Source: Chloroflexota bacterium
GTDB lineage: Bacteria; Chloroflexota; Dehalococcoidia; E44-bin15
Direction of reading: 5' to 3'
DNA length: 64,000 bases
Assembly (NCBI GenBank): GCA_034189695.1
Contig: JAXHUA010000141.1
Coordinates: 3,341-67,340, forward strand
Shown here: positions 38,566-63,766 of the stretch, piece after piece
How positions within the stretch are numbered: the first letter of the stretch is position 1
Layout of the letters: every line of letters begins with the position of its first letter
Position numbers and translations under genes: made by a program
Notes under the pieces: model-generated
Databases searched by the model: none
What the model saw: the letters and a program-made list of their open reading frames with translations, nothing else
Told to the model about the DNA's origin: nothing

Positions 38566-38793
38566 TTATCTGATACTACTTGTTGTTATCATGGAATACC
38601 AGGTGCCTCAATTCGGATGAAGGAGGCAGCGCGAATAAGGGGGAGAGGGAGGTGTTACAGGTATAGCGAGCGGGCGGGAGCTAATGGCCAAGGATGAAGC
38701 TGGCGAGGGGCATGCTGCGGCGTTGGCCGTTGTGTCATCTGGCTGGACAGGCCACACCGCACGGCGGGGCAATGTCCGTTGGAGGGGTCGCGG

Positions 38794-45714: not shown

Positions 45715-45828
45715 GGCGAATCCGTGAAAGCCAGTCATCCGCCAGACAAGCGAACTGAGAGTCACGACGGCTCCGCACACGGGCGGGGGCGGCAGGTGTA
45801 CGGAGCAAAGAGGACTGAGGGACAACCG

Positions 45829-48800: not shown

Positions 48801-49611
48801 GCCGGAGATACCGAAGGCGGAATCGGCGGCACTGGATAACCCGCTGGGGTTCAGCGCCGGCATCGGCCAGTACCCCGACGATGCCGAAACCGCCGATGGA
48901 CTGATATTCCTCGCCGACACCGCCCTGTATCACTCCAAGAGGACCGGCGGGTACAGGTCAACCGTTGTGTCCGACCTGCCGAGCCTGGCGTTGAAGCATC
49001 ACGACAGAGCCACGCTGGACCACGTGTACGCCCTCTCGGCGACGGTGGACGCCAGGGACCCGTTCACTTACGGCCACTCCGAACGAGTCGCCACGATAGC
49101 GGAGATGATTGGGAGGGCGGCGGGTCTGCCCCCGGAAGAACTCGCCGACCTGGAGTTTGGCGCTCTGCTGCATGACATTGGCAAGGTTGGCGTTCCCGAC
49201 TCGATTCTCACCAAACCCGACAAACTCACTGAAAAGGAGTGGAGGGTGATGCGTAAGCATCCGGGTGAGGGAGCGAAGATAATCGGGCATGTCAAGGAGC
49301 TGGCTTCCGTGGTTCCCATGGTGCGGCACCATCACGAGTGGTACGATGGCAGCGGGTATCCGGACGGGATCAAGGGTGAAGAGATTCCCATCTGCGCTCG
49401 AATCATCAGCATAGCGGACGCCTATGACACCATGACCACGCTGCGTCCCTATCGGGTGCCAATGTCGCAGAGGGCGGCGTTGGAGGAACTGCGGCGCTGC
49501 TCCGGCACTCAGTTTGACCCGGAGCTGGTCGAGCACTTCGCCAGCGTTCTGAGTGAGGCGGATGCCCATGACGCAACGGGGGCGAAGTCGGTGTTCCCAG
49601 CGCGAAAATAG
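45829..49611 (+). CDS. paralogous multi-PAS - Cys-rich GAF-like - PAS - GAF - GGDEF - HD-GYP signalling protein
   Basis: About 1260 aa (1295 aa if the GTG at 45724 is used). The C-terminal 600 aa are highly similar to the upstream gene (LEALHAISAAVIQSLDLDTML, RKSD I-site, FRYGGDEFTIILPG, HDIGKVGVPD...HHEWYDGSGYPDGI). There is a Cys-rich insert (CGDCPLLSCC...LECDG) at about 46380-46700. Confidence 0.85.
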   Translation: MDELTNTGQRAAASAETHSAGSVTPDDGLYRSFAEYASDFIWTMDMSLRYTYVSPSVTSLLGYTVEEAKDLRLEDLMDQQYIDLAASVLAEELSVQQTPDLGKSRTLESELKRKDGSTVWVESRMKFVRDANGERVGISGISRDITERKQAQQKIEHLTRLLRAIRNVNRLITKERDRDALLEAACRNLVDTPGYDSAWVCVFGERGRPVSVAQAGLGACFVPMEEWLVGGNLSSCGEKASKGPGVVVTRASTRACGDCPLLSCCASSLAVTTRLECDGKVYGVLSIVAPLWLKPDTEERMLLQEVAMDIAFALQTMESEEERRGAEEALKESEELSRGLLEAVTVGTYIVQDGKFQYVNPRFQEITGYTGHELLGTQSLDYVHTEDRETVRGKAIDCLKGRSSSAYEYRYLRKDGDVLWILERVASIVHRGRLATVGSFMDITERKRAEHALRDSEEKYRNLVERANDGILIIQGGIIKYANQRLAEMGGYTLSDLIGVPFISFVHPDEVRNAANRYKRRMAGETLESVYETVLRRKDRSDLHAEINAGVVTYDDSAADLVFVRDTTERRMAEENARQSEIKYHTALESARDGIIIIDSDGIVVDVNQTCLGALGCNSKDEVVGSHVVGLLAPETQRQMERGLRGSLEKTLVEGKGYVTNLELVARSADGRQFPIEVNVSRLSDERGQGRGSVIVIRDITERKRVEKQLLDHTMRLEALHAISAAVIQSLDLDTMLKSALDKVVEVIGANAGYIHLFDTESRELVLKAQRGLSQRYIEAIGRLSVREEAMQRWATYPEPSFRPDGIVDQLGDRSVGAADGSDMLRILVSIPLWSKSGMQGGLTLVGNTSRHFPPEELDLLKAIGNEIAVGIENARLLGKTKQLSITDELTALHNRRHFYEVLENEMNRTQRYGHSFSLVMVDLDGFKEYNDKYGHTNGDTVLRSLAQMLKSLLRKSDTAFRYGGDEFTIILPGTEVEKAKKIVDRIRDRWPEIPKAESAALDNPLGFSAGIGQYPDDAETADGLIFLADTALYHSKRTGGYRSTVVSDLPSLALKHHDRATLDHVYALSATVDARDPFTYGHSERVATIAEMIGRAAGLPPEELADLEFGALLHDIGKVGVPDSILTKPDKLTEKEWRVMRKHPGEGAKIIGHVKELASVVPMVRHHHEWYDGSGYPDGIKGEEIPICARIISIADAYDTMTTLRPYRVPMSQRAALEELRRCSGTQFDPELVEHFASVLSEADAHDATGAKSVFPARK

Positions 49612-49649: not shown

Positions 49650-51560
<1,911 letters not shown>

Positions 51561-51644
51561 TCAGGCTCCGCCGATGCCATAGAACGGCTAGAGCGAAGCG
51601 TGCGGGAAATACTGAAGAACGGTCAAAAAGGGTTCCTCCCATAA

Positions 51645-52082
51645 TTATAGCACAGAGCCCCGTTCATTGGAAGTTGCCGCCTCTTGACTTAGCTTCCACC
51701 GGACGTAGCTCAGGTAGGGCAAAAGCTCCACCTTCTCTTGCTCGCTCAACTGTGAGAAGGGATCAACCGCACTGGGGATTTCGTCCTTAAGCGAAGCCAC
51801 CAGGTCCATGGGTATGCGGTTGAGGGCTTTGCACAGCTCGACGTAGCGCACCCCATACACACTGGCCCACATAGCCAGCGCTCCGTCCTTGGGCTTCTTC
51901 CACCCCCCTTCTACTTGGTACACGAAACCGGGCGAGACGCTGAGCTTCGTGGCTATGTCCGCCACGCGCGGAATACGTCCACTGACGTCTTCACGCAAGC
52001 GGCTTCTGGCGTCCCGTAACCGGTTGCCAAGCACCGCGTAGGGGCGTCGCTTCCTGGAGCCCGTGTCCAACACGTGGGACAT
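51645..52082 (-). CDS. XRE-family HTH transcriptional regulator (phage-repressor-like) with leaderless start
   Basis: HTH_XRE (LGNRLRDARSRLREDVSGRIPRVADIATKLSVSPGFVYQVEGG). The ATG at 52082 lies immediately downstream of a -10 TAATAAT; the ORF tool extends to TTG 52109. Confidence 0.7.
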   Translation of the reverse strand: MSHVLDTGSRKRRPYAVLGNRLRDARSRLREDVSGRIPRVADIATKLSVSPGFVYQVEGGWKKPKDGALAMWASVYGVRYVELCKALNRIPMDLVASLKDEIPSAVDPFSQLSEQEKVELLPYLSYVRWKLSQEAATSNERGSVL

Positions 52083-52083
52083 T

Positions 52084-52148
52084 ATTACACCAAATTGTGC
52101 AAAAGTCAAGCTTATGTATTGACATTTTCAACCATTTGGTGTAGTATG
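52084..52148. promoter_or_regulatory. divergent promoter/operator region: inverted repeat ACACCAAAT...ATTTGGTGT flanking face-to-face promoters
   Basis: 9-bp arms at 52087-95 and 52134-42. Minus-strand -35 TTGACT/-10 TAATAAT serves the XRE gene. Plus-strand -35 TTGACA (52119-24), 17 nt, TAGTAT (52143-48) points rightward. Confidence 0.5.
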
Positions 52149-52260
52149 TATCCGCAATCCCCATCAGAGTTGTTGTTCTGGGGACACCCCCAGACCCCCG
52201 CCAGAGGGGAGCCTCCTCCAGGCTCCCCTCCGTGATTTGACCGGCGGTTGGGTCTCCGCT

Positions 52261-52977
52261 TCACTTCCTCACCCCGTCCAGGATGAACATGGAGCCGGCG
52301 TATATCTGGCCGATGACAGGCGTGACGGTGATCCTGGATATCCTCGAGGTGGTGTTGTTCCACCTGCCGGTAATGTGGCGTAGAGAGGAGCTTCCCAGGC
52401 CGGCAAAGCTGAGCCACTCCTTTTGCACTGTGGCGTCGCGGTTCTGGATGTAGATGAAGGCAACTCCGTAGTGGAGGTCGTCGAACATACCGAGCACGCC
52501 GAAGGTGTTCGCCTCTACCAGCGTGGTGCGTACACCGCTCGAGTCGGCGAGAAGGTCGCGGAAATCGTAGTTCTGTCCGTCGTCGTCGTTGAAGCGAAGG
52601 CCGGTGGACATGGGGCCGCCGTACGTTGACCTTCTGATGAGGGCGAGAAGCCTGAAGGCGGCGTGGTCCGCGGAGAGTCCCTCGAAGTCCACCGCCGTGG
52701 CGTTCTCGTCGAGGACTCTTGTCTCGATGTGTTCCCAGGGCCAGCCGCGCTGGCTGTGGCCCGAGGTGGAGAAGACGGCGGTCACCACGGCATCGTGCGG
52801 GTTGGACTCGTCCAGGAAGATGACGGCGCAGGGCAGGCCGGGGACCATCGTCGCCGGGGGTATGGCGCGTGACACGGGCACCCCTTCGAGCCACACCGAA
52901 AGACTGCCGGCAACCTGTACTGTGGCGGTGTAGGACTGGGGATCGAAGCCCTGTATGATTCCCTTTCTGATCATCAT
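52261..52977 (-). CDS. phage-like structural protein with N-terminal gpV/gp5-type OB-fold (baseplate spike-like), tentative
   Basis: The N-terminus GIIQGFDPQSYTATVQVAGSLSVWLEGVPV...GLPCAVIFLDESNPHDAVV resembles the Phage_base_V/VgrG OB-fold pattern; 238 aa. Confidence 0.35.
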   Translation of the reverse strand: MMIRKGIIQGFDPQSYTATVQVAGSLSVWLEGVPVSRAIPPATMVPGLPCAVIFLDESNPHDAVVTAVFSTSGHSQRGWPWEHIETRVLDENATAVDFEGLSADHAAFRLLALIRRSTYGGPMSTGLRFNDDDGQNYDFRDLLADSSGVRTTLVEANTFGVLGMFDDLHYGVAFIYIQNRDATVQKEWLSFAGLGSSSLRHITGRWNNTTSRISRITVTPVIGQIYAGSMFILDGVRK

Positions 52978-53019
52978 GGCGCTCCCTTCGTGTTGCTCGG
53001 GGCAAGCCCTTCACATTCC

Positions 53020-54969
53020 TCAGGGCAGGCCCAAGGCCATTCTCAGCGTGTAGTCGGCGGTGGCTGGGCCCCATCCATGCGCGAGGGCCAGGACGCGGCG
53101 TCTTGCGCCGCACAGGCCCGCCTGAGGGGACGTCACGTCGATGACGTCGAACAGGTCCTGGCCGCAGTTCATCGGGGCCAGGAGTTCGCCCCCGAGCCTC
53201 TCCATCTCGGCGTCTCTGATGACTGCAACGCCCCGCTGATGCGCCTTGTCGGTCGTGTCGAGGTTGATGTCCTGTACCTGCACGAGCCGGTCGCAGACAT
53301 CTTCGATGTCGTTCCAGCTCCACTCCTCGGTCATCAGGGCATCGCCGAATACCTGGGCTCGGTTGGCGGAAGCGATCTCCTCCCGGTAGCGCCCGCGAAG
53401 GATGGCATGGTCCGTGCCGTAGCTGTACGTGCTCTCGTCGCTTGCCTGCGGGTTCGTCAGGTAGGCCTTCTGGGCGATGAACAGTATGACGTCGGGGACC
53501 ATGTCGAGCAGGCGCTGCACGGCGGTGAGGGCGCTCTGGCCGGGATGAATGGTGAAGGCGGGCGTCTGGATTATGGCGCTGGAGGGCGAGTACGAGGTGA
53601 GTTCGAGACCGGCCCGGGCGAAGAGGAAGGAGAGAAGCTGGAAGATGTTGCGTGCGCCTGCCTGCCAGGTGAACTGCCTCCTGGCGCGCCAGCGTTCCAG
53701 CAGTGACCACCCATCGCGGGCATGCAGGACGAAGGTGCTGTGCCCGGGCGCGGTGACGTGCTCCCACGCTTCCAGCCAGAAGGCGGGCGCGGTTGCGGAC
53801 TTGGGGCCTTCGGAGGTGTGGTAGCCCAGGCGGAGGACGGCCTCGCTGCCCGGAGTGATTGGGGACTGGGGGTCGTTGTAGCGGCCGTCGTCGTTGCGCA
53901 GGGTGAGTTGAAGGCGCCCCGAGAAAGGCCGGATGGCGGTTGTCAGGGCGATGACGTCGTCGGAGAGCTCTACGGACTGGGGGAGTATTCGGGCGCGCCA
54001 CACGGCGTACGGGGCGCAGAGCCAGGCGTGGGAGGCGTCGTGGGTCAGGACGACGCCGTAGGCGCTGTCGAGGTTGAAGGGCACCGGCTCGCGCCACAGG
54101 CTGGAGATGAAATCGGCGCTGGGGAGTGAATGGCTCCAGTGGGGGCGCGAGTATGGCTCGTCGCCGGCGTAGCGTTCGACGAAGAAGAGCCGGCAGACGT
54201 CGGGGATGTCCAGCGAGGGTGCGAGGTACTCGGTGTACGAGTCGGCGCTGGCGGCGATGACCTCCTGCAGCTCGGACCACGAGTCGGGGGCCATGGTGTA
54301 GCCGTCGCCCAGGACGCACGTCCACAGCCCTGGCCCGCCGGCGGCGTCAACGCCGCTCACCGCCGCGTTCCAGTCTCCAAAATGGACCACGGCGATGCCG
54401 GTCACGGCGGTGAGCGTGCTAGTCCAGGGTGCCGGCTGCTCCCAGACGCCTCCGATGCGGCGGCGCCGGTAGACTGTCGCCCCGTCGGAATACAGGACCA
54501 GCGCATCGCCGTTCGCCTTGAAGCAGGCGGCCACGCGGTAGTCGGCGCAGTCGCCGCCGATGTAGGTCATGTCGATGGGGTCGCCCCAGGTGTCGCCGCA
54601 GGTTGTGCTCTCCCTGCGCCGCAGCCAGCCGGTGCTCTGCACCCAGAAGGCGAGGACCTCATTGCCCCGCGAGCATACGGCCACGTCGGAGCCGGTGTAG
54701 CCCCAGTAGTACCAGTGTGAGAAGTCGCTCTCCGGCCCGGGGTCGGGGACGCGCTGGCGATAGATGCCGCCTCCGCCCCTGAGCCGTACCAGGCTGCCGT
54801 CGCCGGGCATGGTGGCGTCCGTGTGGCAGTCGGGCTCCTCGCCGCTGTACAGCCGCTCCCATCGCAGGCGGGTGGCTGCCCCGAGCTTCTCGACCAGTTC
54901 TACCCTGAGGTACGGCCTGGCCGTGGCGCTCCTCTGGGCGGCCAGCAAAGCGCTCGGCAGTGCTCTCAT
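53020..54969 (-). CDS. large phage-like structural protein (649 aa), beta-rich, possible tail/host-interaction or glycosidase-like protein
   Basis: No Walker motifs; Trp/Tyr/Gly-rich repeats (WYYWGYTGSD, YSDGATVYRRR) suggest a beta-propeller/BNR-like fold; positioned after the head genes. Confidence 0.35.
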   Translation of the reverse strand: MRALPSALLAAQRSATARPYLRVELVEKLGAATRLRWERLYSGEEPDCHTDATMPGDGSLVRLRGGGGIYRQRVPDPGPESDFSHWYYWGYTGSDVAVCSRGNEVLAFWVQSTGWLRRRESTTCGDTWGDPIDMTYIGGDCADYRVAACFKANGDALVLYSDGATVYRRRRIGGVWEQPAPWTSTLTAVTGIAVVHFGDWNAAVSGVDAAGGPGLWTCVLGDGYTMAPDSWSELQEVIAASADSYTEYLAPSLDIPDVCRLFFVERYAGDEPYSRPHWSHSLPSADFISSLWREPVPFNLDSAYGVVLTHDASHAWLCAPYAVWRARILPQSVELSDDVIALTTAIRPFSGRLQLTLRNDDGRYNDPQSPITPGSEAVLRLGYHTSEGPKSATAPAFWLEAWEHVTAPGHSTFVLHARDGWSLLERWRARRQFTWQAGARNIFQLLSFLFARAGLELTSYSPSSAIIQTPAFTIHPGQSALTAVQRLLDMVPDVILFIAQKAYLTNPQASDESTYSYGTDHAILRGRYREEIASANRAQVFGDALMTEEWSWNDIEDVCDRLVQVQDINLDTTDKAHQRGVAVIRDAEMERLGGELLAPMNCGQDLFDVIDVTSPQAGLCGARRRVLALAHGWGPATADYTLRMALGLP

Positions 54970-54978
54970 GTCGCCGCC

Positions 54979-55254
54979 TCAGCGGGAGGCGAGATCTCGA
55001 GCGGCGGCTATCGCCTCGCTGAACTCGCGGCCCACGTTCTCGAACGCCTGCGTTATCTCACGGCGTTGCTCCGGAGTCGTGGTCGGCTCCTCGAGGGCGT
55101 GGTGCATGCTCAGGCCGCACACGCCGAGGGCCACCACGGCCTCGGAGGTCTCCTTGAGCAGCGTCAGGCCCTTGCGCCATTTTGCCCCCAGGAGCCCCGA
55201 CACGATGCCCAGCAGGGGCACGATGATGGTGGCTGCGATCTCCCATGCGCTCAT
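54979..55254 (-). CDS. small membrane protein (holin-like), 91 aa
   Basis: The N-terminal TM (IAATIIVPLLGIVSGLLGA) is followed by a charged C-terminus; a perfect AAGGAGG RBS lies 6 nt upstream of the ATG at 55254. The listed 251-aa ORF is an Arg/Pro-rich artefact upstream. Confidence 0.55.
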   Translation of the reverse strand: MSAWEIAATIIVPLLGIVSGLLGAKWRKGLTLLKETSEAVVALGVCGLSMHHALEEPTTTPEQRREITQAFENVGREFSEAIAAARDLASR

Positions 55255-55335
55255 GTTCTGTTCCTCCTTTCGTTTGGTGCTGGTTGTCGGTTTACGGCCT
55301 TTCGATGGGGCGGTGGGTGATTGAGGTGGGGGCCT

Positions 55336-55423
55336 GGGGCCGTTCATGCCCCTCACTTCGCTCGGGACAAGGTTCGACAGGCCTGCCCTGAGCTTGTCGA
55401 AGGGCTCACCACGAACGGCTGGG
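55336..55423. repeat. 88-bp repeat unit (MITE/REP-like), a perfect inverted copy of 58135-58222
   Basis: GGGGCCGTTCATGCCCCTCACTTCGCTCGGGACAAGGTTCGACAGGCCTGCCCTGAGCTTGTCGAAGGGCTCACCACGAACGGCTGGG. It contains an internal hairpin TTCGACA...TGTCGAA and imperfect terminal inverted repeats CCGTTC/GAACGG. Confidence 0.9.
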
Positions 55424-55493
55424 GTGTGGCCACTGGGCGACGTGGGCCGTTGATGCCTCTGAGTTCGTCCACTGCTGCCTCGCCGTTCATGGG

Positions 55494-55832
55494 TCACACC
55501 AGGGCGAGCAGGGTGTCGGGCACCGGGCGCGCGGCGTGGCGGTAGTGACCTGCCAGGTGCCTGGCCGCGCTGAGTATCCGCTCGGGCGCTGCGCTGACTC
55601 TCTCGCCTCGGTGGCCGCCGGGGGACAGCGCCGCCACCGCGGCCGGCATGCGGTCCCAGTCGACGGTCTTCTCGACGTCGAGCTTCCCCTTGAGGGCGCG
55701 GAAGATGGCCCGGGTGTGGTGTGGCAGCTTCCACGTGTCGGGGTCGTCCGGGTCGCCCACGATGGCGAACGCGTCGCTGGGAAGGCCGTCCTTGGTCGGC
55801 GGGAGACCTTCTTTCACTCTGGCGTTGGACAT
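55494..55832 (-). CDS. hypothetical phage-module protein (112 aa)
   Basis: Conserved position between the connector-like gene and the small membrane protein; no recognisable motif. Confidence 0.35.
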   Translation of the reverse strand: MSNARVKEGLPPTKDGLPSDAFAIVGDPDDPDTWKLPHHTRAIFRALKGKLDVEKTVDWDRMPAAVAALSPGGHRGERVSAAPERILSAARHLAGHYRHAARPVPDTLLALV

Positions 55833-55885
55833 CGCTACCTCCTTTCCAGGCCGGGGCGGAGCTGATGCTCCTCCCTAACCGGATG

Positions 55886-56518
55886 CTATGGCCCTGGGTC
55901 TGTGGAGAGGCCCCTGATGGGTGCCGCCGGAGTGTAGAGGCGGGTGCCCCTCACCTTGCCGCGTCGCCCGAGCCTCCTCAGTTCCTCCCTGAAGTGGGAC
56001 AGCCTTTGCCGTCCCTCGACGGCAAAGCGGTCGGGCGTGTCGATGCCGCCAAGGTTGACCTGGTTGATGGCGAAGGCGGCCCACTCCACCAGGGCATACC
56101 CTTCGGCGCCGTTGGCTATCAGGTCCTCAAAAGGTGGTGGGATGGTCGAGGTGTCGCCGTCGAGGGTGTGGAGCTTGCCGTAGGCGACGCGGCAGTCGGA
56201 GCCGTCGGGCACTTCGTCGCCGAGCACCGTGAGCGTGTCTTTCCAGATGGCGAAGCGCTGGTAGCACGGCGGGAAGCGGCCCACGGGGTACTCGGCCGCC
56301 TGGACGAGGACGCGGTCGGACAGGGTCGAGATGTCGATCTCACGCGAGCCCTCGGTGGTGGGCAGGAGCGCCGTTTGCTCCTGCGGCACCGCCAGCGAGA
56401 ACTCCCGCACCGCGTGGGCGATGTGGCGGTCGAGTTCGTCGTCGCTCCAGCGTCGGTTCTCCGGGTCCTCGTCGTGCAGGTCCCGTCTGACTGTGCAGCG
56501 CATCTCGCTCAGGTCCAT
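55886..56518 (-). CDS. putative head-tail connector/adaptor protein (gp6-like), tentative
   Basis: 210 aa, acidic, helical N-terminus (MDLSEMRCTVRRDLHDEDPENRRWSDDELDRHIAHAVREF), directly downstream of the capsid gene as in HK97-type head modules. Confidence 0.4.
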   Translation of the reverse strand: MDLSEMRCTVRRDLHDEDPENRRWSDDELDRHIAHAVREFSLAVPQEQTALLPTTEGSREIDISTLSDRVLVQAAEYPVGRFPPCYQRFAIWKDTLTVLGDEVPDGSDCRVAYGKLHTLDGDTSTIPPPFEDLIANGAEGYALVEWAAFAINQVNLGGIDTPDRFAVEGRQRLSHFREELRRLGRRGKVRGTRLYTPAAPIRGLSTDPGP

Positions 56519-56529
56519 CTACGCTCTCC

Positions 56530-56660
56530 TTCTGTCTTCACTCCCCCCTCCCTCCCGCTTCCTCCCTCCCGCGAGGGGAGGGAGGAACCGCTCCACACTC
56601 CCTTGAGGGAGAGGGCAAGGCCTGCCCTGAGCTTGTCGAAGGGGTGAGGGTGAAACGCCC
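56530..56660. repeat. composite intergenic repeat: GA/CT palindromes (TTCCTCCCTCCC-GCGA-GGGGAGGGAGGAA; CTCCCTTGAGGGAGAGGG) plus a CCTGCCCTGAGCTTGTCGAAGGGG unit
   Basis: Shares the CTTCGACAAGCTCAGGGC core with copies at 55379, 58083, 58153, 61697, 61789 and a diverged copy at about 17490-17515. Confidence 0.8.
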
Positions 56661-56674
56661 GCATGGGCGAGTCG

Positions 56675-57577
56675 CTACGAGCCAACCGGCCTCACGCCGA
56701 TGAGGCGCGCCAGCTTCACGGTGCTGAAGAGCGCCAGGCCGACGTACCACTTGATGCGCGTCCGCGTGGCGTCCTTGGCCTCGAGCTGGCCGACGCGCTC
56801 CACCTGTATCCCGCCGGGCGCGGTCAACCCGCACAGCGCCCCCTCGCCCATCTGGAAGGCGTAGATGGTGGAACAGTCGGAGCTGGTGCCGACGACCTTG
56901 TTGTCGCCTACCCAGTCGCTGATGGCCACCGGGATGCCGTTGTACAGCTCGATGAACGCGCCCCAGTCGTCGCGCTCCACCTGGAGGTACGAGCCGGCGG
57001 CGCGGGAGAGCTGGTTGAGGCTTCGGCGGGTGCGTCGGCTCATGAGCAGCAGCTCCGGCTTGCCCCCTTTGACCATGTCTACCAGCTCATCGAGCTTGTC
57101 GAGCGTGAGTGCTCCGCCGTTGTCGCCCATGGAGAGCGTCTGGCCGGTGGTCTGGCATATCTTGTCGACGCCCTCGAAGTCCTTGGATGCCCCGGTGCCC
57201 AGCCCGTTGATGAAGGTGTCCTCGAACTCGTGGCGCACCGCCTTGGCGTTCAGCTCGACCACCGCCGCCTCGACGTCCTGGAGATTGGAGCGGGTCGCCT
57301 TGATGAAGTTGTCCACGTCGGCGTTGGCCCCGACGATCTCCAGCCCGGCGGTCACCTGCTCGAGGGTGGGCGCCGTCTCCGCGCTCCACTCCTCGTTCTC
57401 GTCGTACCACGCCACGGTGGGCAGGGTGCTCTCACGGTTGTACGTCAGGCCGTTGCCCACGATCTCAATGAAGGGCAGCTTCTGAAGGACGGGGGAGTCC
57501 TTGATGATGGTCTCGATGACGCCCAGAAGCAGGACGTCGTTCGACAGTTTGGATGCTTCGGCGAGTGTGATAGCCAT
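56675..57577 (-). CDS. putative major capsid protein (HK97-fold-like)
   Basis: 300 aa; translationally coupled (3-nt gap) to an upstream coiled-coil scaffold-like protein; C-terminal region alpha/beta-rich, like MCPs. The family assignment rests on context and composition only. Confidence 0.5.
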   Translation of the reverse strand: MAITLAEASKLSNDVLLLGVIETIIKDSPVLQKLPFIEIVGNGLTYNRESTLPTVAWYDENEEWSAETAPTLEQVTAGLEIVGANADVDNFIKATRSNLQDVEAAVVELNAKAVRHEFEDTFINGLGTGASKDFEGVDKICQTTGQTLSMGDNGGALTLDKLDELVDMVKGGKPELLLMSRRTRRSLNQLSRAAGSYLQVERDDWGAFIELYNGIPVAISDWVGDNKVVGTSSDCSTIYAFQMGEGALCGLTAPGGIQVERVGQLEAKDATRTRIKWYVGLALFSTVKLARLIGVRPVGS

Positions 57578-57580
57578 CGG

Positions 57581-58051
57581 CTATGCCTCCTTTCCCAGTG
57601 CGTAGTGGATCTTCTCCCTGGGGGACATGGCGGACAGATCGGGGACGGCGCGCTCCGGGGCGCCGGCCGGCACGTGCGTCGCCTTGAGGTCTTCCTCCAG
57701 TGTTTGCCGCACCCGCCCCGCCATATCCCGTGCCCGGTCGAGTGACGCGTCGATGTCGGCGATGGTCGCGCCGGCGACCATCTCCTCCGGGATCTGCGGG
57801 TTGGCGGCGACGAGCGCCGCGCGGTAGCTGGCCACCGCCTCATGCAGCGTTTCGGTCGCCGCCGCCAGCTCGGCGTCCCTCTCATCGAGCGCCGCCTTCA
57901 TCGAGGTCAGCTCCTGCTGGCCGGCGTCGTTCGCCGCCAGCGCCTCGGCAAGCTGCGCCTGGAGTTCGCCGAGCCTGGCGTCTCTCTCCCCAAGCTGCGC
58001 TTTCAAGCCCTCCAGTTCCGTCTGTACCATTGCAGTCTCTTCCTCGTTCAT
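57581..58051 (-). CDS. putative scaffolding protein (coiled-coil)
   Basis: 156 aa, strongly helical Ala/Glu/Leu-rich (LEGLKAQLGERDARLGELQAQLAEALAAND...), immediately upstream of the capsid gene. Confidence 0.5.
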   Translation of the reverse strand: MNEEETAMVQTELEGLKAQLGERDARLGELQAQLAEALAANDAGQQELTSMKAALDERDAELAAATETLHEAVASYRAALVAANPQIPEEMVAGATIADIDASLDRARDMAGRVRQTLEEDLKATHVPAGAPERAVPDLSAMSPREKIHYALGKEA

Positions 58052-58059
58052 TCCTGGCC

Positions 58060-58340
58060 TCCTTGAAAGTCTTCGCTTTCACCCCTTCGACAAGCTCAGG
58101 GCGAACCGTTGGCAAGGTCGTGGTGAGCCGCCGGCCCAGCCGTTCGTGGTGAGCCCTTCGACAAGCTCAGGGCAGGCCTGTCGAACCTTGTCCCGAGCGA
58201 AGTGAGGGGCATGAACGGCCCCGGGCGAACGCTTGGCACTCACCCTAGCCCTCTCCCGTCAAGGGAGAGGGAATGTGCTGCCGCGAGCCGCGGGAGGTGC
58301 AACTGTCCTCCCTCCCCCAGAAGGAGGGGGATGCCTCCTT
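58060..58340. repeat. repeat-dense intergenic region (two CCCTTCGACAAGCTCAGGGC units, a CCCTCTCCC-GTCAA-GGGAGAGGG hairpin, and a CCTCCCTCCCCC/GGAGGGGG hairpin)
   Basis: Direct inspection. The units recur at 61683-61860 and 56530-56660. Confidence 0.8.
58135..58222. repeat. 88-bp repeat unit, reverse-complement copy of 55336-55423 (100% identity)
   Basis: Exact reverse complement over 88 bp. Together the two copies bracket 55424-58134 (scaffold, capsid and two small head genes). Confidence 0.9.
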
Positions 58341-58395
58341 CACTCGCCAGCGTGCCACGCACTCTCACGCTCCCCGCTGGCGACTGCACCGAGGA

Positions 58396-58411
58396 TAGAA
58401 CACATGTTCTA
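58396..58411. promoter_or_regulatory. operator-like palindrome TAGAAC-ACAT-GTTCTA, 26 nt upstream of the -35 of the R-M gene promoter
   Basis: 6-bp perfect arms. The same TAGAAC-N4-GTTCTA motif occurs at 63497-63512 and nowhere else in the window. The downstream promoter is TTGACA (58438-43)-17-TACCAT (58461-66), followed by an AGGAGG RBS. Confidence 0.55.
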
Positions 58412-58492
58412 CGCGCGTCAAGCCAGAAATGTCACGGTTGACATGCTTGAGAGCGGCCACTACCATTGTGGTGCTCGCATAGGAGGCGTTGG

Positions 58493-61400
58493 ATGGCAGC
58501 GGACCTCAAGCCGCTCCGGGAGTACGCACGCGCGGTGGCGCGGGAACTGGGGGTGGGCAACACCACGGAGCACAGCCACCGGCCGGCGCTGAAGGGCCTG
58601 CTCGAGGCGCTCGACGGCAGGGTCGTGGCGACCAATGAGCCGAAGCGCATAGCCTGTGGTGCCCCAGACTTCGTGGTCACACGTGGTGCCTCGGTGGTGG
58701 GCTACATCGAGGGCAAGGACGTCGGCAGCAGCCTCGACGACGCCGAGCGTTCGGAGCAGATGGAGCGCTACCTCCCATCGCTGAGCAACCTGGTGCTCAC
58801 CGACTACCTCAGCTTCCGCTGGTACGTCGACGGCCACCTGAGGCTATCCGCCCGCCTGGGCCGGGCGTCACTGTCGGGCAAGGTGCTCGTGGACAGGGAC
58901 GGCCTCAACGCCGTGGCCGATCTGCTCGCCTCCTTCCTGTGCCACACCGCCGAGGGCGTCGGCACACCGAGGGAGCTGGCCGAGCGCCTGGCGCGCCTGG
59001 CCCGCCTGGCCCGCGGCCTTATCGCCAACGCGATTGCCAGCGAGGCCGAGGCCGGCCCCCTCCACGGCCAACTGGCCGCGTTCCGTGACAACCTCATTCC
59101 CGACCTGAGCCCGGAGCGGTTCGCCGACATGTATGCCCAGACCATGGCCTACGGCCTGTTCGCCGCGCGCTGCGCCGCGGACGGCGGCTGCTTCACTCGC
59201 CAGAACGCCGGGTACCTCCTGCCCCGGACCAACCCCTTCCTGCGCAACCTCTTCGGCGACATCGCCGGCCCGAACCTCGACGACCGAGTCGCCTGGCTCG
59301 CCGACGACCTGGCGCAGGTGCTGGCGCAGGCCGACATGGACGCCGTGCTGCGCGATTTCGGGCGGAGGACGGCCACCGAGGACCCGGTGGTGCATTTCTA
59401 TGAGACCTTCCTGGGCCGGTACGACCCGAGGGAGCGCCAGGTACGCGGGGTGTACTACACCCCCGAGCCGGTGGTGTCCTACATCGTGCGCTCGGTCGAC
59501 CACCTGCTCAGGACGCGCTTCAACAGCCCCGAGGGCCTGGCCGACCCCCGCGTCCTCATCCTCGACCCCGCTGTGGGCACCGGCACCTTCCTCTACAGCA
59601 TAGTCCGGAAGATCCACGAGGCCTTCGTGCGCCAGGGGCAGGGTGGCCTCTGGAACGACTACGTGGCCGACCGTCTCCTGCGGCGCCTGTTCGGCTTCGA
59701 GCTGCTGATGGCCCCCTACGCCGTGGCCCACCTCAAGCTGGGGCTGCTGCTCCGCGAGACCGGCTACCGGTTCCAGGCCGACCAGCGCCTTGGCGTATAC
59801 CTGACCAACACCCTGGAGGAGGCCTTCACCCGCTCCCAGCTCCTCGCCGGGTTCAACCGCTACATCGTTGACGAGGCCAACGCCGCCGCGCGCATCAAGA
59901 AGGAGAAGCCCATCATGGTGGTGCTGGGCAATCCACCCTACGCGGGCTTCTCCGCCAACGCGAGCACGCGCATGGTGAAGGAGGGCAGGAGCAAGCGGAT
60001 GAAGCGTGACTTGACCTGGATTGGCCGCCTCATCCAGGACTACAAGCAGGTCGATGGCGGGCCGCTGGGAGAGAGGAACCCCAAGTGGTTGCAGGACGAC
60101 TACGTCAAGTTCATCCGCTTCGGCCAGTGGCGCATCGAGCAGACCGGCCACGGCATCCTCGCGTTCATCACTAACCACGGCTACCTGGACAACCCGACCT
60201 TCCGCGGCATGCGCCAGTCGCTGATGAATACGTTCAGTGACATCTACGTCCTGGATCTCCACGGCAACGTGAAGAAGCGCGAGAGCGCGCCCGACGGCGG
60301 CCCCGACCAGAACGTGTTCGATATCCAGCAGGGGGTCGCCATCGGCATCTTCGTCAGGGAGCCTGGCCGGGAGAGGCCCGGGCGGGTGCAGCATGCCGAC
60401 CTTTGGGGGGCGCGTGGTGACTGGCCCGATCCCGAAGAGGGGACGAAGTACCGCGCGCTCGCGGAGACGGACGTCTCAACGACCTCTTGGGAGCCCTTGG
60501 CCCCCGCGACACCGGCCTATTTCTTCGTGCCCCGGGACGAGGTGCTGGCTGCCGAGTACCATCAGGGGTGGAAGGTAACGGACATCTTTCCGCTCCACAG
60601 CGCGGGCATCGTCACCGCGCGCGACAGCCTCGCGGTGGCATGGAGCGCGCAGGAAATGTGGCACACACTTGCGGACTTCGCTTCGCTGGAACCCGAGGCC
60701 GCGCGAGAGAAGTACAGGCTCGGTGCCGACGCCCGGGACTGGAGCGTGTCAATGGCCCAGGCGGACGTCACGGCCAGCGGTCCCACCCCCGACCGCGTGG
60801 TACCCCTGCTGTATCGGCCCTTCGACGTCAGGTTCACCTACTACACCGGGCGCTCCCGTGGCTTCCAGTGCATGCCGCGCCCAGACGTCATGCGCCACAT
60901 GCTGGGCGGCGCCAATGTTGCGCTCATCACTGTTCGCAAGGTGCCCCGCGGCCAGGCGGCGGGCTACTTCTCTGCTGCGCGCTTTCCGGCGAGCAATGGG
61001 GCGATACGCTCCGACAACCAGAGTATCGACTACGTTATCCCGCTGTACGCTTGGGCCGCACAAGGCGAGATGCAGTTTCAGGGAGAGCCGCGCCGGGCCA
61101 ATTTGAACCCGGCCTTCAGCAACGCCGTTTCGGACGCGCTAGCGCTGCGCTTCGTGGCCCACGGCAGCGGTGACCTGGAGCAGTCTTTCGGCCCGGAGGA
61201 CGTGTTCCACTACATCTACGCAGTGCTCCACTCGCCGGCGTACCGCAGCCGCTACGCGGACTTCCTCAAGACCGACTTCCCGCGCGTTCCCCTGACCTCG
61301 GAAAGGGGGCTCTTCGCGGCGCTCGCCGCCAAGGGCGCCCAGCTGGTCGCGCTGCACCTCATGGAGTCGCCCCTCCCGGCCACCCTCATCACCGGCTATC

Positions 61401-61681
61401 CGGTGGCGGGCACCGACATAGTGGAAAGGGTGAGCTACGACGCCGCGACCGGCCGCGTCCACATCAACAAGACGCAGTACTTCGATGGCGTGCCCCGCGA
61501 CGTCTGGGAGTTCCACGTAGGCGGCTACCAGGTGTGCCATAAATGGCTCAAGGACCGCAAGGGACGCAAGCTGGCCTACGATGACAAGACCCACTACCAG
61601 CGGGTTGTGGTGGCGCTGAACGAAACCGTACGCCTGATGGCTGAGATCGACGCCCTCATCCCGTCGTGGCCCATCGACTAG
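58493..61681 (+). CDS. Type IIG (MmeI-like) restriction-modification fusion enzyme: N-terminal PD-ExK nuclease, N6-adenine methyltransferase and C-terminal specificity domain
   Basis: The N-terminus has PDFVV...GYIEGKD (a D...ExK nuclease motif like MmeI). MTase motif I is LDPAVGTGTFL; motif IV is VLGNPPYAGFS (NPPY). The C-terminal HVGGYQVCHKWLKDRKGRKL...ETVRLMAEIDALI block is the TRD/coupler seen in MmeI/Type ISP C-termini. There is no helicase. ATG 58493 follows an AGGAGG RBS; the ORF tool opens at TTG 58466. Confidence 0.75.
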   Translation: MAADLKPLREYARAVARELGVGNTTEHSHRPALKGLLEALDGRVVATNEPKRIACGAPDFVVTRGASVVGYIEGKDVGSSLDDAERSEQMERYLPSLSNLVLTDYLSFRWYVDGHLRLSARLGRASLSGKVLVDRDGLNAVADLLASFLCHTAEGVGTPRELAERLARLARLARGLIANAIASEAEAGPLHGQLAAFRDNLIPDLSPERFADMYAQTMAYGLFAARCAADGGCFTRQNAGYLLPRTNPFLRNLFGDIAGPNLDDRVAWLADDLAQVLAQADMDAVLRDFGRRTATEDPVVHFYETFLGRYDPRERQVRGVYYTPEPVVSYIVRSVDHLLRTRFNSPEGLADPRVLILDPAVGTGTFLYSIVRKIHEAFVRQGQGGLWNDYVADRLLRRLFGFELLMAPYAVAHLKLGLLLRETGYRFQADQRLGVYLTNTLEEAFTRSQLLAGFNRYIVDEANAAARIKKEKPIMVVLGNPPYAGFSANASTRMVKEGRSKRMKRDLTWIGRLIQDYKQVDGGPLGERNPKWLQDDYVKFIRFGQWRIEQTGHGILAFITNHGYLDNPTFRGMRQSLMNTFSDIYVLDLHGNVKKRESAPDGGPDQNVFDIQQGVAIGIFVREPGRERPGRVQHADLWGARGDWPDPEEGTKYRALAETDVSTTSWEPLAPATPAYFFVPRDEVLAAEYHQGWKVTDIFPLHSAGIVTARDSLAVAWSAQEMWHTLADFASLEPEAAREKYRLGADARDWSVSMAQADVTASGPTPDRVVPLLYRPFDVRFTYYTGRSRGFQCMPRPDVMRHMLGGANVALITVRKVPRGQAAGYFSAARFPASNGAIRSDNQSIDYVIPLYAWAAQGEMQFQGEPRRANLNPAFSNAVSDALALRFVAHGSGDLEQSFGPEDVFHYIYAVLHSPAYRSRYADFLKTDFPRVPLTSERGLFAALAAKGAQLVALHLMESPLPATLITGYPVAGTDIVERVSYDAATGRVHINKTQYFDGVPRDVWEFHVGGYQVCHKWLKDRKGRKLAYDDKTHYQRVVVALNETVRLMAEIDALIPSWPID

Positions 61682-61682
61682 G

Positions 61683-61870
61683 CGGCCTCACCCTCACCCC
61701 TTCGACAAGCTCAGGGCTGGCCTTGCCCTCTCCTCGCCACGGTCGAGTCTTCGACCCTCGAGGGAGAGGGGATGTGCCCCCGCACCGTTCACCCTTCGAC
61801 AGGCTCAGGGCGAACGGTGATGGCCGCCGTTCGCGGTGAGGCCTTCGCCCCGGCTGAGGGCAGGCCCTCA
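61683..61870. repeat. repeat-dense intergenic region between the R-M gene and the portal gene (units CTCACCCTCACCCCTTCGACAAGCTCAGGGC, CCCTCTCC...GGGAGAGGG, CACCCTTCGACAGGCTCAGGGCGAACGG)
   Basis: Same repeat family as at 55.3, 56.6 and 58.1 kb. Confidence 0.8.
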
Positions 61871-63238
61871 TCCACCCTCTGCCCCGCTCTGGCGGGCGTT
61901 GAGGTCGCGGTTCATCTGGAGGATGCGCTTTCGCTCCTCCAGCCAGGCGTCGAACTCGAGTCCGGGGCTGTCCACCCCGAGGTACTCCATGGCGCGGCGG
62001 CGCGAGTGGACGCCGCTCTGGATGAGCGCCACCTCGGTGGCCGCCTCCCGCTCGCGGTCGCGGGGCAGCACCGGTCCCCACACGATGCGGTGCGACAGGC
62101 GGCCGAAGCGCTCGCCGGTGAAGCGCTCAATGAGCGCCAGCACCATCTCGTTGCGCCGGCGGTAGGCCGCAGTGCGCACCAGGCGCTTGCGGGCCACCTT
62201 CTGGAGCAGCGGCTGCATCTCGATCTCCAGCGCCACCCCTGACAGGTCGCGGCCGGCGGTGCCGAAGGCGGCGCGGGGGGACTCGGAGATGTCGTGCAGC
62301 GTGCGGTACAGTAGGTCGATGTAGTCGATGTGGAGCCGCACCCCACCTCCCTGGAGCAGGTCGAGCAGGTACGCCCGCGCCTCCTCGGGAATGTTCCACA
62401 CCGCCCCGGGCTGCACCGCGATGTCCTGCGACGACTCCACGTTCTCCAGCACGGCGATGGGGTTGCCCGAAAGCTCCAAGATGCGTGAGAGCTGCGACAG
62501 CGCCCGGTTCAGCTCGCGCTGCGCCTCCATCAGCACTGGAATGTCCGACACGCCCCAGAAACGCTTCGGCTGGCACAGGTTGGGGAATATGACGAACGGG
62601 ATGAAGCCATATGGGTTGGGCGCCGTCGTGATGCACTCGTCGTCGAGCCACAGCTCGAAGGCCCTGTCGGTCCACACCTCCGCCACCCACGCCGTCCTTC
62701 CTGACGGCCTGCTGCCGTGGAGCAACTCCACCTCGTCGGCGCTGAGCTGGTAGCGAGAGGCGACCCGGTACACCGTGCCGACATCGTCTGGCAGCCACCA
62801 GGCGTAGAGCCCCTGCACGTCGGGCGCGGTCACCCGGACGCGCCCGTCGGCCACGTCCCAGGTCACCTTGTATGCTGCGTCGCCGAGGACAGCGCAGTCG
62901 GTCTCGGTGTCGAAGTCGAGGGCTTCCAGGTTGTTGTCGCGGTACACCTGGTGCAGCGCCGCCTCCGCCGCCACGGCGCGCTGCCGCGCGTCGTCACCGT
63001 CCTCGACGGGATCGACGGTGAAGCCCATGCCGGACATGAGGTACGAGGTCGTCTTGTCGACGATGGCCTTGGCGTAGTTGAAGGTGAGGTGCTTCTCGCC
63101 CCTGGTGGCCCGCGCCGGCCACTGCGCGCCGTTGTAGAAGGCCAGGCTCCCGGCATAGCGCTTCATCCGGTCGCGGTCCGTGCGCGCGAGCTGCTGCGGC
63201 AGGGCTGGACCGTTCATCCTCCACCCCCCGCGGCGCAC
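61868..63238 (-). CDS. phage portal protein (SPP1/HK97-like portal family)
   Basis: 456 aa; N-terminal FNYAKAIVDKTTSYLMG-type portal motif, central GFIPFVIFPN, and an acidic C-terminus. The start is GTG 63238 or ATG 63217, overlapping the upstream HTH gene stop. Confidence 0.6.
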   Translation of the reverse strand: MRRGGWRMNGPALPQQLARTDRDRMKRYAGSLAFYNGAQWPARATRGEKHLTFNYAKAIVDKTTSYLMSGMGFTVDPVEDGDDARQRAVAAEAALHQVYRDNNLEALDFDTETDCAVLGDAAYKVTWDVADGRVRVTAPDVQGLYAWWLPDDVGTVYRVASRYQLSADEVELLHGSRPSGRTAWVAEVWTDRAFELWLDDECITTAPNPYGFIPFVIFPNLCQPKRFWGVSDIPVLMEAQRELNRALSQLSRILELSGNPIAVLENVESSQDIAVQPGAVWNIPEEARAYLLDLLQGGGVRLHIDYIDLLYRTLHDISESPRAAFGTAGRDLSGVALEIEMQPLLQKVARKRLVRTAAYRRRNEMVLALIERFTGERFGRLSHRIVWGPVLPRDREREAATEVALIQSGVHSRRRAMEYLGVDSPGLEFDAWLEERKRILQMNRDLNARQSGAEGG

Positions 63239-63486
63239 GCCTGCGGTCTGCGTCCGGCGATGACGCGATAGACGGTGCGCCGGCTCACGCCGAAGCGCCG
63301 CGCCAGCTCGTGCACCGCCACGCCATCACCATAAAGCCGCACCATCCGCTCGTTCCTCAGCTCCTTGGCGGTCTGCTTGCCCGGTCGGTCGTAGCGGCAG
63401 GTCGCCAGGGGGCAGTTGAGGCAGGAGGGGAAGAGGTCGCACCCCTCGTCGCGGTAGGCGCAATGCTCGGGCACGAAGTCGTCCAT
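63214..63486 (-). CDS. small Cys-rich (CX6CX5CX2CX4C) HTH DNA-binding protein; candidate controller or terminase-small-subunit-like protein
   Basis: 90 aa; five Cys near the N-terminus in HCAYRDEGCDLFPSCLNCPLATC; a C-terminal HTH ELARRFGVSRRTVYRVI. It is the first gene of the portal operon, and its mRNA appears leaderless. Confidence 0.55.
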   Translation of the reverse strand: MDDFVPEHCAYRDEGCDLFPSCLNCPLATCRYDRPGKQTAKELRNERMVRLYGDGVAVHELARRFGVSRRTVYRVIAGRRPQACAAGGGG

Positions 63487-63492
63487 GCCCCG

Positions 63493-63521
63493 ATGATAGA
63501 ACTAATGTTCTATACTGTCAA
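63493..63521 (-). promoter_or_regulatory. minus-strand promoter TTGACA-17-TATCAT for the HTH-portal operon, with the TAGAAC-TAAT-GTTCTA palindrome inside the spacer
   Basis: The -35 is the reverse complement of 63516-21 and the -10 the reverse complement of 63493-98. The palindrome at 63497-63512 overlaps the -10 and spacer. The ATG at 63486 is 6 nt downstream of the -10, which implies a leaderless transcript. Confidence 0.55.
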
Positions 63522-63635: not shown

Positions 63636-63766
63636 TTGACGCGGCGGGCGTCCTGTGGTATTCTTACTGCTCCAGCAAGCGGGGGCGAAGAAGCGGGGCC
63701 TTCATTTGGGCGCTTGGGCTCCGTGGAGTCAGTAGCGAAACCGACCGCAGGGTCGGTTTCTTTTTT
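63636..63766 (+). ncRNA. candidate small RNA or attenuator leader: an extended -10 promoter, an approximately 95-nt transcript, and a strong intrinsic terminator
   Basis: TTGACG (63636-41), 17 nt, a TG-n-TATTCT extended -10 (63656-64); then the hairpin GAAACCGACC-GCAG-GGTCGGTTTC (63737-60) plus a TTTTTT tract (63761-66). There is no ORF of 30 aa or more in between. Confidence 0.35.

Follow-up and report, generated by a model that had tools for sequence, protein, structure and literature searches.

Does a long perfect inverted repeat that brackets the head genes of a prophage act as a switch for these genes, or has it a more ordinary origin? The question is raised by the right-hand part of a 64,000-nt stretch of DNA from a Chloroflexota bacterium of the Dehalococcoidia (E44-bin15; GenBank assembly GCA_034189695.1, contig JAXHUA010000141.1, positions 3,341 to 67,340 of the forward strand), the whole of which is called the window below. 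A reading made from the letters alone, the sequence-only reading, had noticed two 88-nt arms, here designated copies A and D, around a scaffold-capsid segment, and had proposed a recent transposition or homogenisation of an element similar to a miniature inverted-repeat transposable element (MITE), as well as a possible phase-variation switch by inversion of the segment. The idea of a capsid-gene phase switch gives way here to an ordinary explanation: the arms are a palindromic repeat present in two copies, and are probably members of one dispersed family and no purpose-built pair. The same tiny hairpin, with a loop conserved to the base, is scattered across many bacterial phyla and some phages and is nested within itself, while in this prophage its units edge a gene cassette that split the phage head operon and supplied a replacement promoter. 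The family is apparently undescribed in the searchable literature, and the inverted pair around the capsid gene is read as an ordinary by-product of such repeats.

The inverted pair and its repeat family

Direct comparison of 55336-55423 with the reverse complement of 58135-58222 gave 88 identical positions out of 88, as claimed, and a repeat search lengthened the arms to 55332-55423 and 58135-58226 (92 nt, 99% identity, spacer of 2711 nt), the identity breaking off abruptly at either end. Six occurrences of the 20-nt core of the family, CCCTTCGACAAGCTCAGGGC, were counted in the window, where 0.00 are expected, all of them in intergenic DNA and between 55.3 and 61.8 kb; since this core alone exceeds the expectation so clearly, a perfect inverted repeat of 88 nt within 64 kb lies far outside chance expectation. 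The presence of scaffold, major capsid and two small head genes between the arms was likewise confirmed, with all four open reading frames (ORFs) on the minus strand. The pair and its surroundings are as follows.

55332-55423, minus strand: copy A, a composite palindromic element of 88-92 nt with a nested build, hairpin-forming, 88/88 identical with D, in the gap about 70 nt past the stop of the 112-aa ORF
55494-55832, minus strand: small head-module ORF of 112 aa, kept in the relatives L209, L211 and L212, inside the pair
55886-56518, minus strand: SU10-adaptor-like gene, inside the pair
56675-57577, minus strand: major capsid protein gene of the HK97 fold family (Pfam Phage_capsid 9e-12, PHROG 212 3e-66), inside the pair
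57581-58051, minus strand: gene of a scaffold-like coiled-coil protein (weak Phage_scaffold match; position kept in the relatives L209 and L210), inside the pair
58135-58226, plus strand: copy D, the composite palindromic element in the orientation opposite to A, within the 334-nt leader that runs from the promoter-like site P2 to the scaffold start codon
61868-63238, minus strand: portal protein gene, outside the pair

The CCGTTC/GAACGG termini and the TTCGACA...TGTCGAA complementarity named in the sequence-only reading are present, and the whole unit is one long imperfect hairpin closed by the terminal inverted repeats CCGTTCGTG ... CATGAACGG, which are complementary at 8 of 9 positions; the fold of the 88-mer has -44 kcal/mol and z = -2.2 (minus strand). 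An independent check was provided by the Logan assembly of the same sequencing run (SRR24907504), in which three contigs (50191-55363, 55401-56431 and 56812-58164) match the outer-A, inner-A and inner-D junctions exactly. All three contigs end within the repeat and none spans an arm, so that the full-length identity and the orientation of the enclosed segment rest on one assembly.

The two arms are accompanied by further members of the family. Altogether 8-9 units are located in five intergenic gaps of the prophage (about 12 kb), and none was assigned in the 52 kb of adjoining host DNA; about 1.6 kb of prophage intergenic DNA carries all the intergenic units, and about 6 kb of host intergenic DNA carries none. 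A generalised scan, with a 3-bp Watson-Crick stem around a YGAGC-N3-6-YGAR loop as the pattern, returned 8 units against 0.38 expected, 7 of them prophage-intergenic and one, chance-like, within a host ORF. Besides A and D, the following copies were distinguished.

52974-53047, plus strand: cluster H, with two to three diverged units where the 649-aa and 238-aa phage ORFs meet
56608-56653, minus strand: copy B, a 46-nt member made of the core and AGGCCTTGCCCTCTCC, in the gap that follows the major capsid gene
58072-58102, plus strand: copy C, a short unit about 20 nt upstream of the scaffold ATG, at the left edge of an inserted segment
61688-61733, plus strand: copy E, a 46-nt member directly after the stop of a methyltransferase gene
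61783-61817, plus strand: copy F, a near-canonical 33-nt hairpin unit, CACCGTTCACCCTTCGACAGGCTCAGGGCGAACGG, with a 13-bp stem in the fold of 61684-61830
61827-61867, plus strand: copy G, a diverged version of the left 41 nt of the 88-mer (34/41 aligned positions identical), abutting the portal stop at the right edge of the inserted segment

Copies B and E constitute a second inverted pair in the module (46 nt, 98%). Cluster H reaches into coding DNA, its units overlapping the 649-aa phage ORF at the 3' end (stop at 53020) and the 238-aa ORF at the start, and the C-terminal residues of the 649-aa protein may be repeat-derived.

The basic unit of the family is a hairpin of about 33 nt, CCGTTCG-stem-TGAGCYTGTCGAA-stem'-CGAACGG, where TGAGCYTGTCGAA is a conserved 13-nt loop and the upper stem is short and variable, with a folding energy of -14 to -16.5 kcal/mol. 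Among 208 loci, the canonical flanks take the forms CCGTTCGTGG-TGAGCCTGTCGAA-CCAYGAACGG and CCGTTCRCCC-TTCGACAAGCTCA-GGGCGAACGG, and head-to-head doublets are very frequent (such as in L014, L121 and L165). Across 352 unique units, the three loop-adjacent stem positions were Watson-Crick paired in 95-99%, compared with 58-86% in the control where the 3' flanks were swapped between units, and the alternative complementary stems included GCCC/GGGC, GGGC/GCCC, GTGC/GCAC, GTGG/CCAC, GTCC/GGAC and ATGG/CCAT. As the stems covary with many alternative pairings, the unit behaves as a small stem-loop with a conserved loop under selection.

The structure of the arms follows from this unit by alignment of the 33-nt canonical form, a 56-nt nested form (L282, from a metagenome) and the 79-nt form of the window, which differ by two clean 23-nt insertions. 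In the 88-mer, the first insertion (23 nt) is a core-type unit within the loop, and the second (23 nt) is a TGAGCGAAGT-type remnant before the 3' stem. The first (inner, level-1) nesting junction was found in 16 unrelated JGI metagenome contigs, and a complete unit inside the loop of another unit in L291, L294 and L296; the two junctions specific to the 88-mer gave no match in IMG/VR. The search for target-site duplications (TSDs) at the nested insertions yielded a possible CTTG duplication in L294 and none in the others, and no rule is derivable from them.

Beyond the window, the exact 20-nt core was found in 88 IMG/VR contigs and in at least 120 species-representative genomes from many phyla. 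The core-bearing isolates belong to Actinomycetota and Alpha-, Beta- and Gammaproteobacteria, and the core-bearing metagenome-assembled genomes (MAGs) to Chloroflexota, Acidobacteriota, NC10, Saccharibacteria, Chlamydiota, Bacteroidota and others. The core is also present, unannotated, on plasmids or chromids of Moraxella, Sphingobium, Comamonas and Polaromonas, with 5-12 places per chromid of about 1 Mb in Sphingobium and Comamonas, while the BLAST search of the 88-mer and the canonical doublet against 50,697 cultured-phage records gave no match. By a crude gene call, 137 of 202 classifiable core sites are intergenic. Thus, the dozens of intergenic copies which, according to the sequence-only reading itself, would speak for a plain repeat family were found at the level of the family, across genomes. 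The convergent gaps (35 sites) outnumber the divergent ones (21 sites), and the orientation with respect to transcription in co-directional gaps is random (42:39). The random orientation and the convergent excess together argue against a strand-specific RNA role and for a hairpin acting at the DNA level or independently of orientation.

Three RNA candidates were tried and rejected: a strand-specific RNA element (riboswitch or ribozyme) by the same random orientation, an intrinsic terminator by the lack of a T-tract after any unit, and a described structured RNA by the Rfam search of 52-64 kb (E<=1), which returned only microRNA-like noise and nothing on the repeats. The literature, searched by the DNA string, by the peptide strings of spurious ORFs and by the name RF02901, did not yield the repeat motif, and the survey of tagged repetitive extragenic palindromic (REP) sequences (PMC3733652) contains neither the motif nor the host genera.

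Several further observations concern the surroundings of the core in other genomes. The GC-rich core is an island in AT-rich DNA in L111 (Coxiellaceae MAG, 36% GC), L138 (Saccharibacteria, 38%) and L160 (Ginsengibacter, 38%); there its flanks are mutually complementary yet locus-specific, each of these genomes having the core as the loop of another local hairpin, and it is often placed beside other widespread hairpin motifs, such as GTCATCCTGA..GAAGGATC. In an Actinomycetota MAG (L162, 7515-7606) the core forms a tandem array of four or more 24-nt repeats (CCCTTCGACAAGCTCAGGGCACGA), and in a Betaproteobacteria MAG (L124, 3786-3953) an array of 37-nt repeats.

As for the mobility of the arms, the perfect identity of A and D, set against the nucleotide divergence of about 20-30% from the coding DNA of the closest relatives, fits the recent transposition or homogenisation that had been proposed. 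The likeness to MITEs stands in part: a hairpin-forming non-coding repeat with inverted termini, further copies nearby and a very wide distribution was found, but neither TSDs nor an autonomous parent. The TSDs, the search for which had been suggested along with the proposal, are missing at both A (..CCACAC / AGGCCC..) and D (..GCCGG / GGGCGA..), which share no direct repeat, and no transposase, REP-associated tyrosine transposase (RAYT) or recombinase is among the matches listed for the window ORFs.

The inserted segment and its prophage setting

The first 52 kb or so of the window are an ordinary bacterial chromosome encoding, among others, a ClpB-type ATPase, serine hydroxymethyltransferase (SHMT), a class I tRNA synthetase, Obg, YidC and transketolase, and the host-side SHMT has about 75% identity to its Dehalococcoidia relatives. 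Near 52 kb begins a prophage or prophage-like element to which the head module belongs, and the GC content at third codon positions (GC3) is 0.88-0.92 in the prophage vs about 0.78 in the host genes. The capsid protein has 71 relatives in IMG/VR, of which L209 (92% aa identity) and L210 (90%) are the closest. The features of the boundary and of the segment between scaffold and portal are listed below.

49650-51557: gyrB, on the host side, adjoining the prophage-like block
58052-61867, no strand: inserted segment of 3.8 kb, absent from the closest relatives L209 and L210
58392-58421, minus strand: promoter-like site P2 (TTGACG-18-TATCCT), facing scaffold and capsid, with the palindrome AGAACACATGTTCT (58397-58410) between the hexamers
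58466-61681, plus strand: ORF of 1071 aa for a Type ISP-like N6-adenine methyltransferase (Type_ISP_C 1.5e-89, N6_Mtase 3.7e-10), opposite to the head genes
63493-63521, minus strand: promoter-like site P1 (TTGACA-17-TATCAT, 11/12) with the palindrome AGAACTAATGTTCT (63498-63511), upstream of the 90-aa helix-turn-helix (HTH) gene and the portal

Since portal, scaffold and capsid are contiguous in L209 and L210, with gaps of 55-57 nt between portal and scaffold, the stretch 58052-61867 is recognised as an insertion. Both its ends are marked by units of the same orientation, C near the scaffold ATG and G at the portal stop, and five direct-oriented (plus-strand) units, C, D, E, F and G, flank or bound it. 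Its order is C, D, two other GC-rich hairpins, a divergent promoter-like pair, the methyltransferase gene, E, another hairpin, F and G. The methyltransferase start is probably downstream of 58466, as this position overlaps the promoter -10, and no helicase or nuclease domain was detected in the ORF. Its homologues in IMG/VR are distant (nearest 34-39% identity) and carry no family units, and there is thus no evidence that the units travel with the methyltransferase gene. The product could be an orphan anti-restriction methylase or a BREX-PglX-like protein.

The promoter-like sites of the insertion (58392-58466) are separate from units C and D; the units have no promoter hexamers, and the hairpins no T-tracts. 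In both P1 and P2, AGAAC-N4-GTTCT palindromes similar to the Cheo or LexA box sit exactly between -35 and -10, and the same promoter-palindrome design (GGAACATATGTTCT) is present upstream of the portal operon in L209. This arrangement suggests a direct repressor control of the structural operon, possibly by LexA. Because P2 shares the design of P1 and of L209, the inserted segment provided the downstream scaffold and capsid genes with a promoter of the phage's own kind.

Comparison with relatives extends the family along the phage lineage. L209 carries diverged units of the same family in the gap equivalent to that of copy A, and in that same gap also a 33-nt CCCTCTCCC...GGGAGAGGG hairpin which is 100% identical to window 58239-58271, while the coding DNA has about 75-80% identity. 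In L214, a unit is located 34 nt past the capsid stop, and superfamily hairpins were found in the head-module gaps of about a dozen relatives. To judge from these loci, the same intergenic positions are repeatedly occupied, and the occupants change. Other GC-rich perfect hairpins were observed in the same gaps, namely TTCCTCCCTCCC..GGGAGGGAGGAA and CCCTCTCCC..GGGAGAGGG followed by CTAGGGTGAGGGTGA (window 56559-56587, 58249-58271 and 58320-58341), and two hairpin copies in L209 (575-616 and 5192-5232) make a 42-nt inverted pair around its whole head module.

On the side of gyrB, the prophage-like block has divergent promoter-like sites (51558-52260) and a 22-nt inverted repeat (52081-52147), and no integrase was seen on this side. 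No large terminase is present upstream of the portal, only a 90-aa HTH_7/Mor-like protein (63214-63486), and only about 3 kb of genes were observed beyond the head module; the block may represent a satellite, a podovirus-like element or a prophage that has become defective. A full-length cyclic di-GMP (c-di-GMP)-II riboswitch (RF01786; 65.4 bits vs gathering 53.5, E 4e-13) is located at 63672-63755 on the plus strand, with a promoter-like site before it (63636-63664) and a terminator-like hairpin with a T-tract at its end (63737-63760). It is divergent from P1, within the prophage region, and its regulated gene continues past the window end. Two giant multi-PAS/GAF-GGDEF-HD-GYP proteins (2311 and 1295 aa) are encoded side by side at 38779-49611 (plus strand) beside gyrB, so that this c-di-GMP signalling hub lies only about 14 kb from the riboswitch of the prophage.

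Weighing the explanations

In our judgement, A and D are probably a composite non-coding palindromic repeat of the type of REPs, REPINs (doublets of REPs which fold into hairpins) and bacterial interspersed mosaic elements (BIMEs), recently duplicated and inverted by accident of orientation. The composite would have been built by nesting, with a second unit received in the loop of the first and a third 23-nt piece before the 3' stem, and would then recently have been copied in one piece into another intergenic gap of this prophage. The copying would be due to a trans-acting transposition that recognises hairpins in single strands and makes no target duplication, or else to recombination or gene conversion among the units already in place. 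REPIN/RAYT and IS200/IS605 elements involve the recognition of hairpins in single-stranded DNA and leave no target duplication. The inverted arrangement around scaffold and capsid is considered incidental, because the element is nearly symmetrical and its orientation arbitrary; two copies of a near-palindrome are about 50% likely to lie inverted. In a polycistronic head mRNA, the repeats would probably form stable stem-loops, D within the P2 leader, B behind the capsid gene and A behind the last of the small genes, and from these positions may stabilise or punctuate the transcript. The units at the observed boundaries of the insertion would also offer short homologies for cassette exchange through a putative recombination. 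Several points weigh against this explanation. No mobilising enzyme was found among the window ORFs, the GTAG/CGTC tag of described REPs is missing from the unit, and the 52 kb of host DNA have 0 units, unlike a classical genome-wide REP family. Moreover, the effect on the mRNA is deduced from position, the perfect identity of A and D could be partly an assembler effect, near-identical repeats being mergeable, and the orientation of the enclosed segment comes from one assembly.

An inversion switch would use the same arms otherwise: by recombination between A and D, homologous through RecA or site-specific, the 2.7-kb scaffold-capsid-adaptor segment would be flipped off P2, with head proteins off in part of the population. 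The geometry fits, as P2 (58421->58392) is just outside D and the genes are inside, so that the flipped genes would be antisense to P2, and 55424-58134 is bracketed by inverted repeats, which is a matter of geometry only. The perfect identity of A and D over 88-92 nt is sufficient for RecA-dependent recombination, and the Logan contigs, all broken in the repeat, leave room for a mixed population. However, the ORFs of 52-64 kb have no Resolvase, Recombinase or Phage_integrase domain, the sole resolvase-type match being the HTH_7 in the 90-aa ORF at 63214-63486, with no catalytic domain, and for the host-side ORFs no transposase or integrase is among the matches listed in pooled scans. The arms belong to a dispersed family with six further units nearby in both orientations, 65 of the 72 related head-module loci are without a separated inverted repeat of >=25 nt, and a capsid OFF state would have no obvious benefit for the phage. 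In the Mu G and P1 C segments, tail-fibre genes are switched via sites of about 26-34 bp with the invertase adjacent, and to our knowledge the known phage invertible segments never switch capsid genes. In the assembled orientation, portal, scaffold, capsid and adaptor are co-linear as in the relatives and downstream of P2. With no recombinase domain in the inspected prophage ORFs, an arrangement not kept in relatives and a canonical assembled orientation, the phase-variation claim is left unsupported, and the switch is the least probable of the explanations weighed here, though a rare inversion through RecA is conceivable. A long-range RNA duplex is quite improbable as well. By this account, D and A on one P2 transcript would pair over 88-92 bp and close a 2.7-kb loop, with excision of the scaffold-capsid-adaptor mRNA by RNase III or sealing of its ends against exonucleases, comparably to the loop-closing stems that flank 16S and 23S rRNA. 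The two arms share one predicted transcription unit, where D belongs to the leader and A follows the last small gene, the computed bimolecular energy is -218 kcal/mol vs about -89 for the two local hairpins together, and perfect identity is what such pairing would select. On the other hand, each arm folds locally and would do so during transcription, 2.7 kb before its partner is made, which disfavours the duplex kinetically; the relatives have no bracketing complementarity; the family shows no orientation bias with respect to transcription elsewhere; P2 transcription across the whole block is predicted only; and the copying of a repeat is the simpler reading of the arms.

That the assembler merged similar repeat copies or joined contigs through the repeat, the perfect identity or the methyltransferase segment being unreal, is very improbable, even though the source is a short-read MAG contig, repeats below the read length are common sites of bubble merging, and each repeat copy is a break point in the independent k-mer assembly of that run. 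The three testable junctions are exact, with 23-32 nt of repeat at each, gene order and strand agree with the relatives except for the insertion, and the insertion contains a promoter that points the right way for the head genes downstream, which is unexpected in a chimera. Improbable, too, is a genome-wide REP family of the host, served by a host RAYT, that has spilled over into an old prophage and has no particular relation to phages. It would agree with the canonical doublets in Dehalococcoidia MAGs, the relatives of the host, and in many bacterial chromosomes and chromids, and with the fact that no cultured phage genome among the records searched carries the units. It is opposed by the distribution in the window, with 0 units in the host intergenic DNA vs 8-9 in the much shorter prophage intergenic DNA, by the diverged units at the equivalent site in L209, the closest viral relative and from another metagenome, together with the superfamily hairpins of about a dozen further relatives, and by the difference in GC3, from which the prophage was probably acquired with the repeats. 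A further and bolder proposal, which we hold to be unlikely, takes the unit as an undescribed pan-bacterial class of very small mobile DNA, neither a RAYT-type REP nor a DDE-type MITE, that inserts itself into its own loops ('Russian-doll' composites), preserves the 20-nt core letter for letter from phylum to phylum, AT-rich genomes included, and travels on phages, with its copies as junctions of gene cassettes such as the methyltransferase insertion; A and D would be a fresh transposition product, met while still 100% identical, whose arms might as a secondary effect pair in RNA or undergo recombination in DNA. Should the unit prove to be a mobile element in its own right, it would serve well as a marker by which to trace DNA exchange between phages and hosts and to locate recombination junctions in uncultured phages. 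The repeat family is also a recurrent source of spurious ORFs and of broken metagenome assemblies.

Comparison with known systems

The arrangement of the locus, a gene block between inverted repeats with a promoter on one side, is like that of the Mu G and P1 C segments (Gin/Cin) and of Hin-type switches. Unlike these invertible segments, A and D have no adjacent invertase, the arms are dispersed repeats of 88-92 nt instead of sites of about 26-34 bp, the cargo is capsid and scaffold instead of tail-fibre ends, and the arrangement is not conserved. Among the described RNA families, RF02901 (AaHKsRNA41, Aggregatibacter sRNA 41) was the sole Rfam family to align, weakly, to canonical units (L017, L135 and L165), in a search with E<=10 of four loci with canonical units. 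Its scores are 18-31 bits vs the gathering threshold of 97, with no match on the window copies, and the family probably just contains a copy of the repeat.

With the MITEs (Correia, Nezha and the MPME elements of mycobacteriophages), the unit shares the small size (79-92 nt), the lack of coding capacity, the multiple copies, the hairpin potential and the 9-nt imperfect terminal inverted repeats CCGTTCRTG / CAYGAACGG, and it is found inside a phage genome as the MPMEs are. It is unlike them in having no TSD at A or D, in being much shorter than typical MITEs and in its modular nested build, and we know of no related autonomous insertion sequence.

REPs, REPINs and BIMEs are short extragenic palindromes whose doublets form hairpins (Bertels & Rainey 2011, PMC3116915; Di Nocera et al. 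2013, PMC3733652). The family resembles them closely, since its units are short, imperfect, stem-loop-forming extragenic palindromes, the inverted, head-to-head doublets fold into one hairpin and mixed clusters are formed, with neither TSD nor coding capacity, with a conservation higher than that of the surroundings and with a preference for 3' gene ends. The described REPs have conserved stems of 5-13 bp, mostly 2-5-nt loops, and a GTAG or CGTC tag (PMC3733652). By contrast, in the present family the conservation is in the 13-nt loop and the stem is short and covarying, the tag is absent, the conserved flank being CCGTTCG / CGAACGG (among the loci seen, GTAG precedes a unit only in L154), the same 20-mer occurs verbatim across phyla instead of being species-specific, and the units are nested in loops and concentrated in the prophage.

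A parallel among phages is given by the promoter-early stem-loop (PeSL) cassettes of T4-type phages (Arbiol et al. 2010, PMC2839356; Comeau et al. 2014, PMC4122927), which are repeated intergenic stem-loop motifs that flank non-essential inserted genes and have been proposed to serve recombinational shuffling (PMC2839356). A PeSL joins a sigma-70 promoter to a terminator stem-loop. The present unit differs from the PeSL in that it has no built-in promoter, the promoters being separate within the same gap, and in its setting, a small SU10-like or HK97-fold prophage of a Chloroflexota host and not a T4-type phage, with units also in bacterial chromosomes of many phyla; neither mini-circles nor recombinants were observed. 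The likeness to the PeSL cassettes lies in the methyltransferase insertion, which is absent in L209 and L210, carries promoters along and has five units in direct orientation at its bounds.

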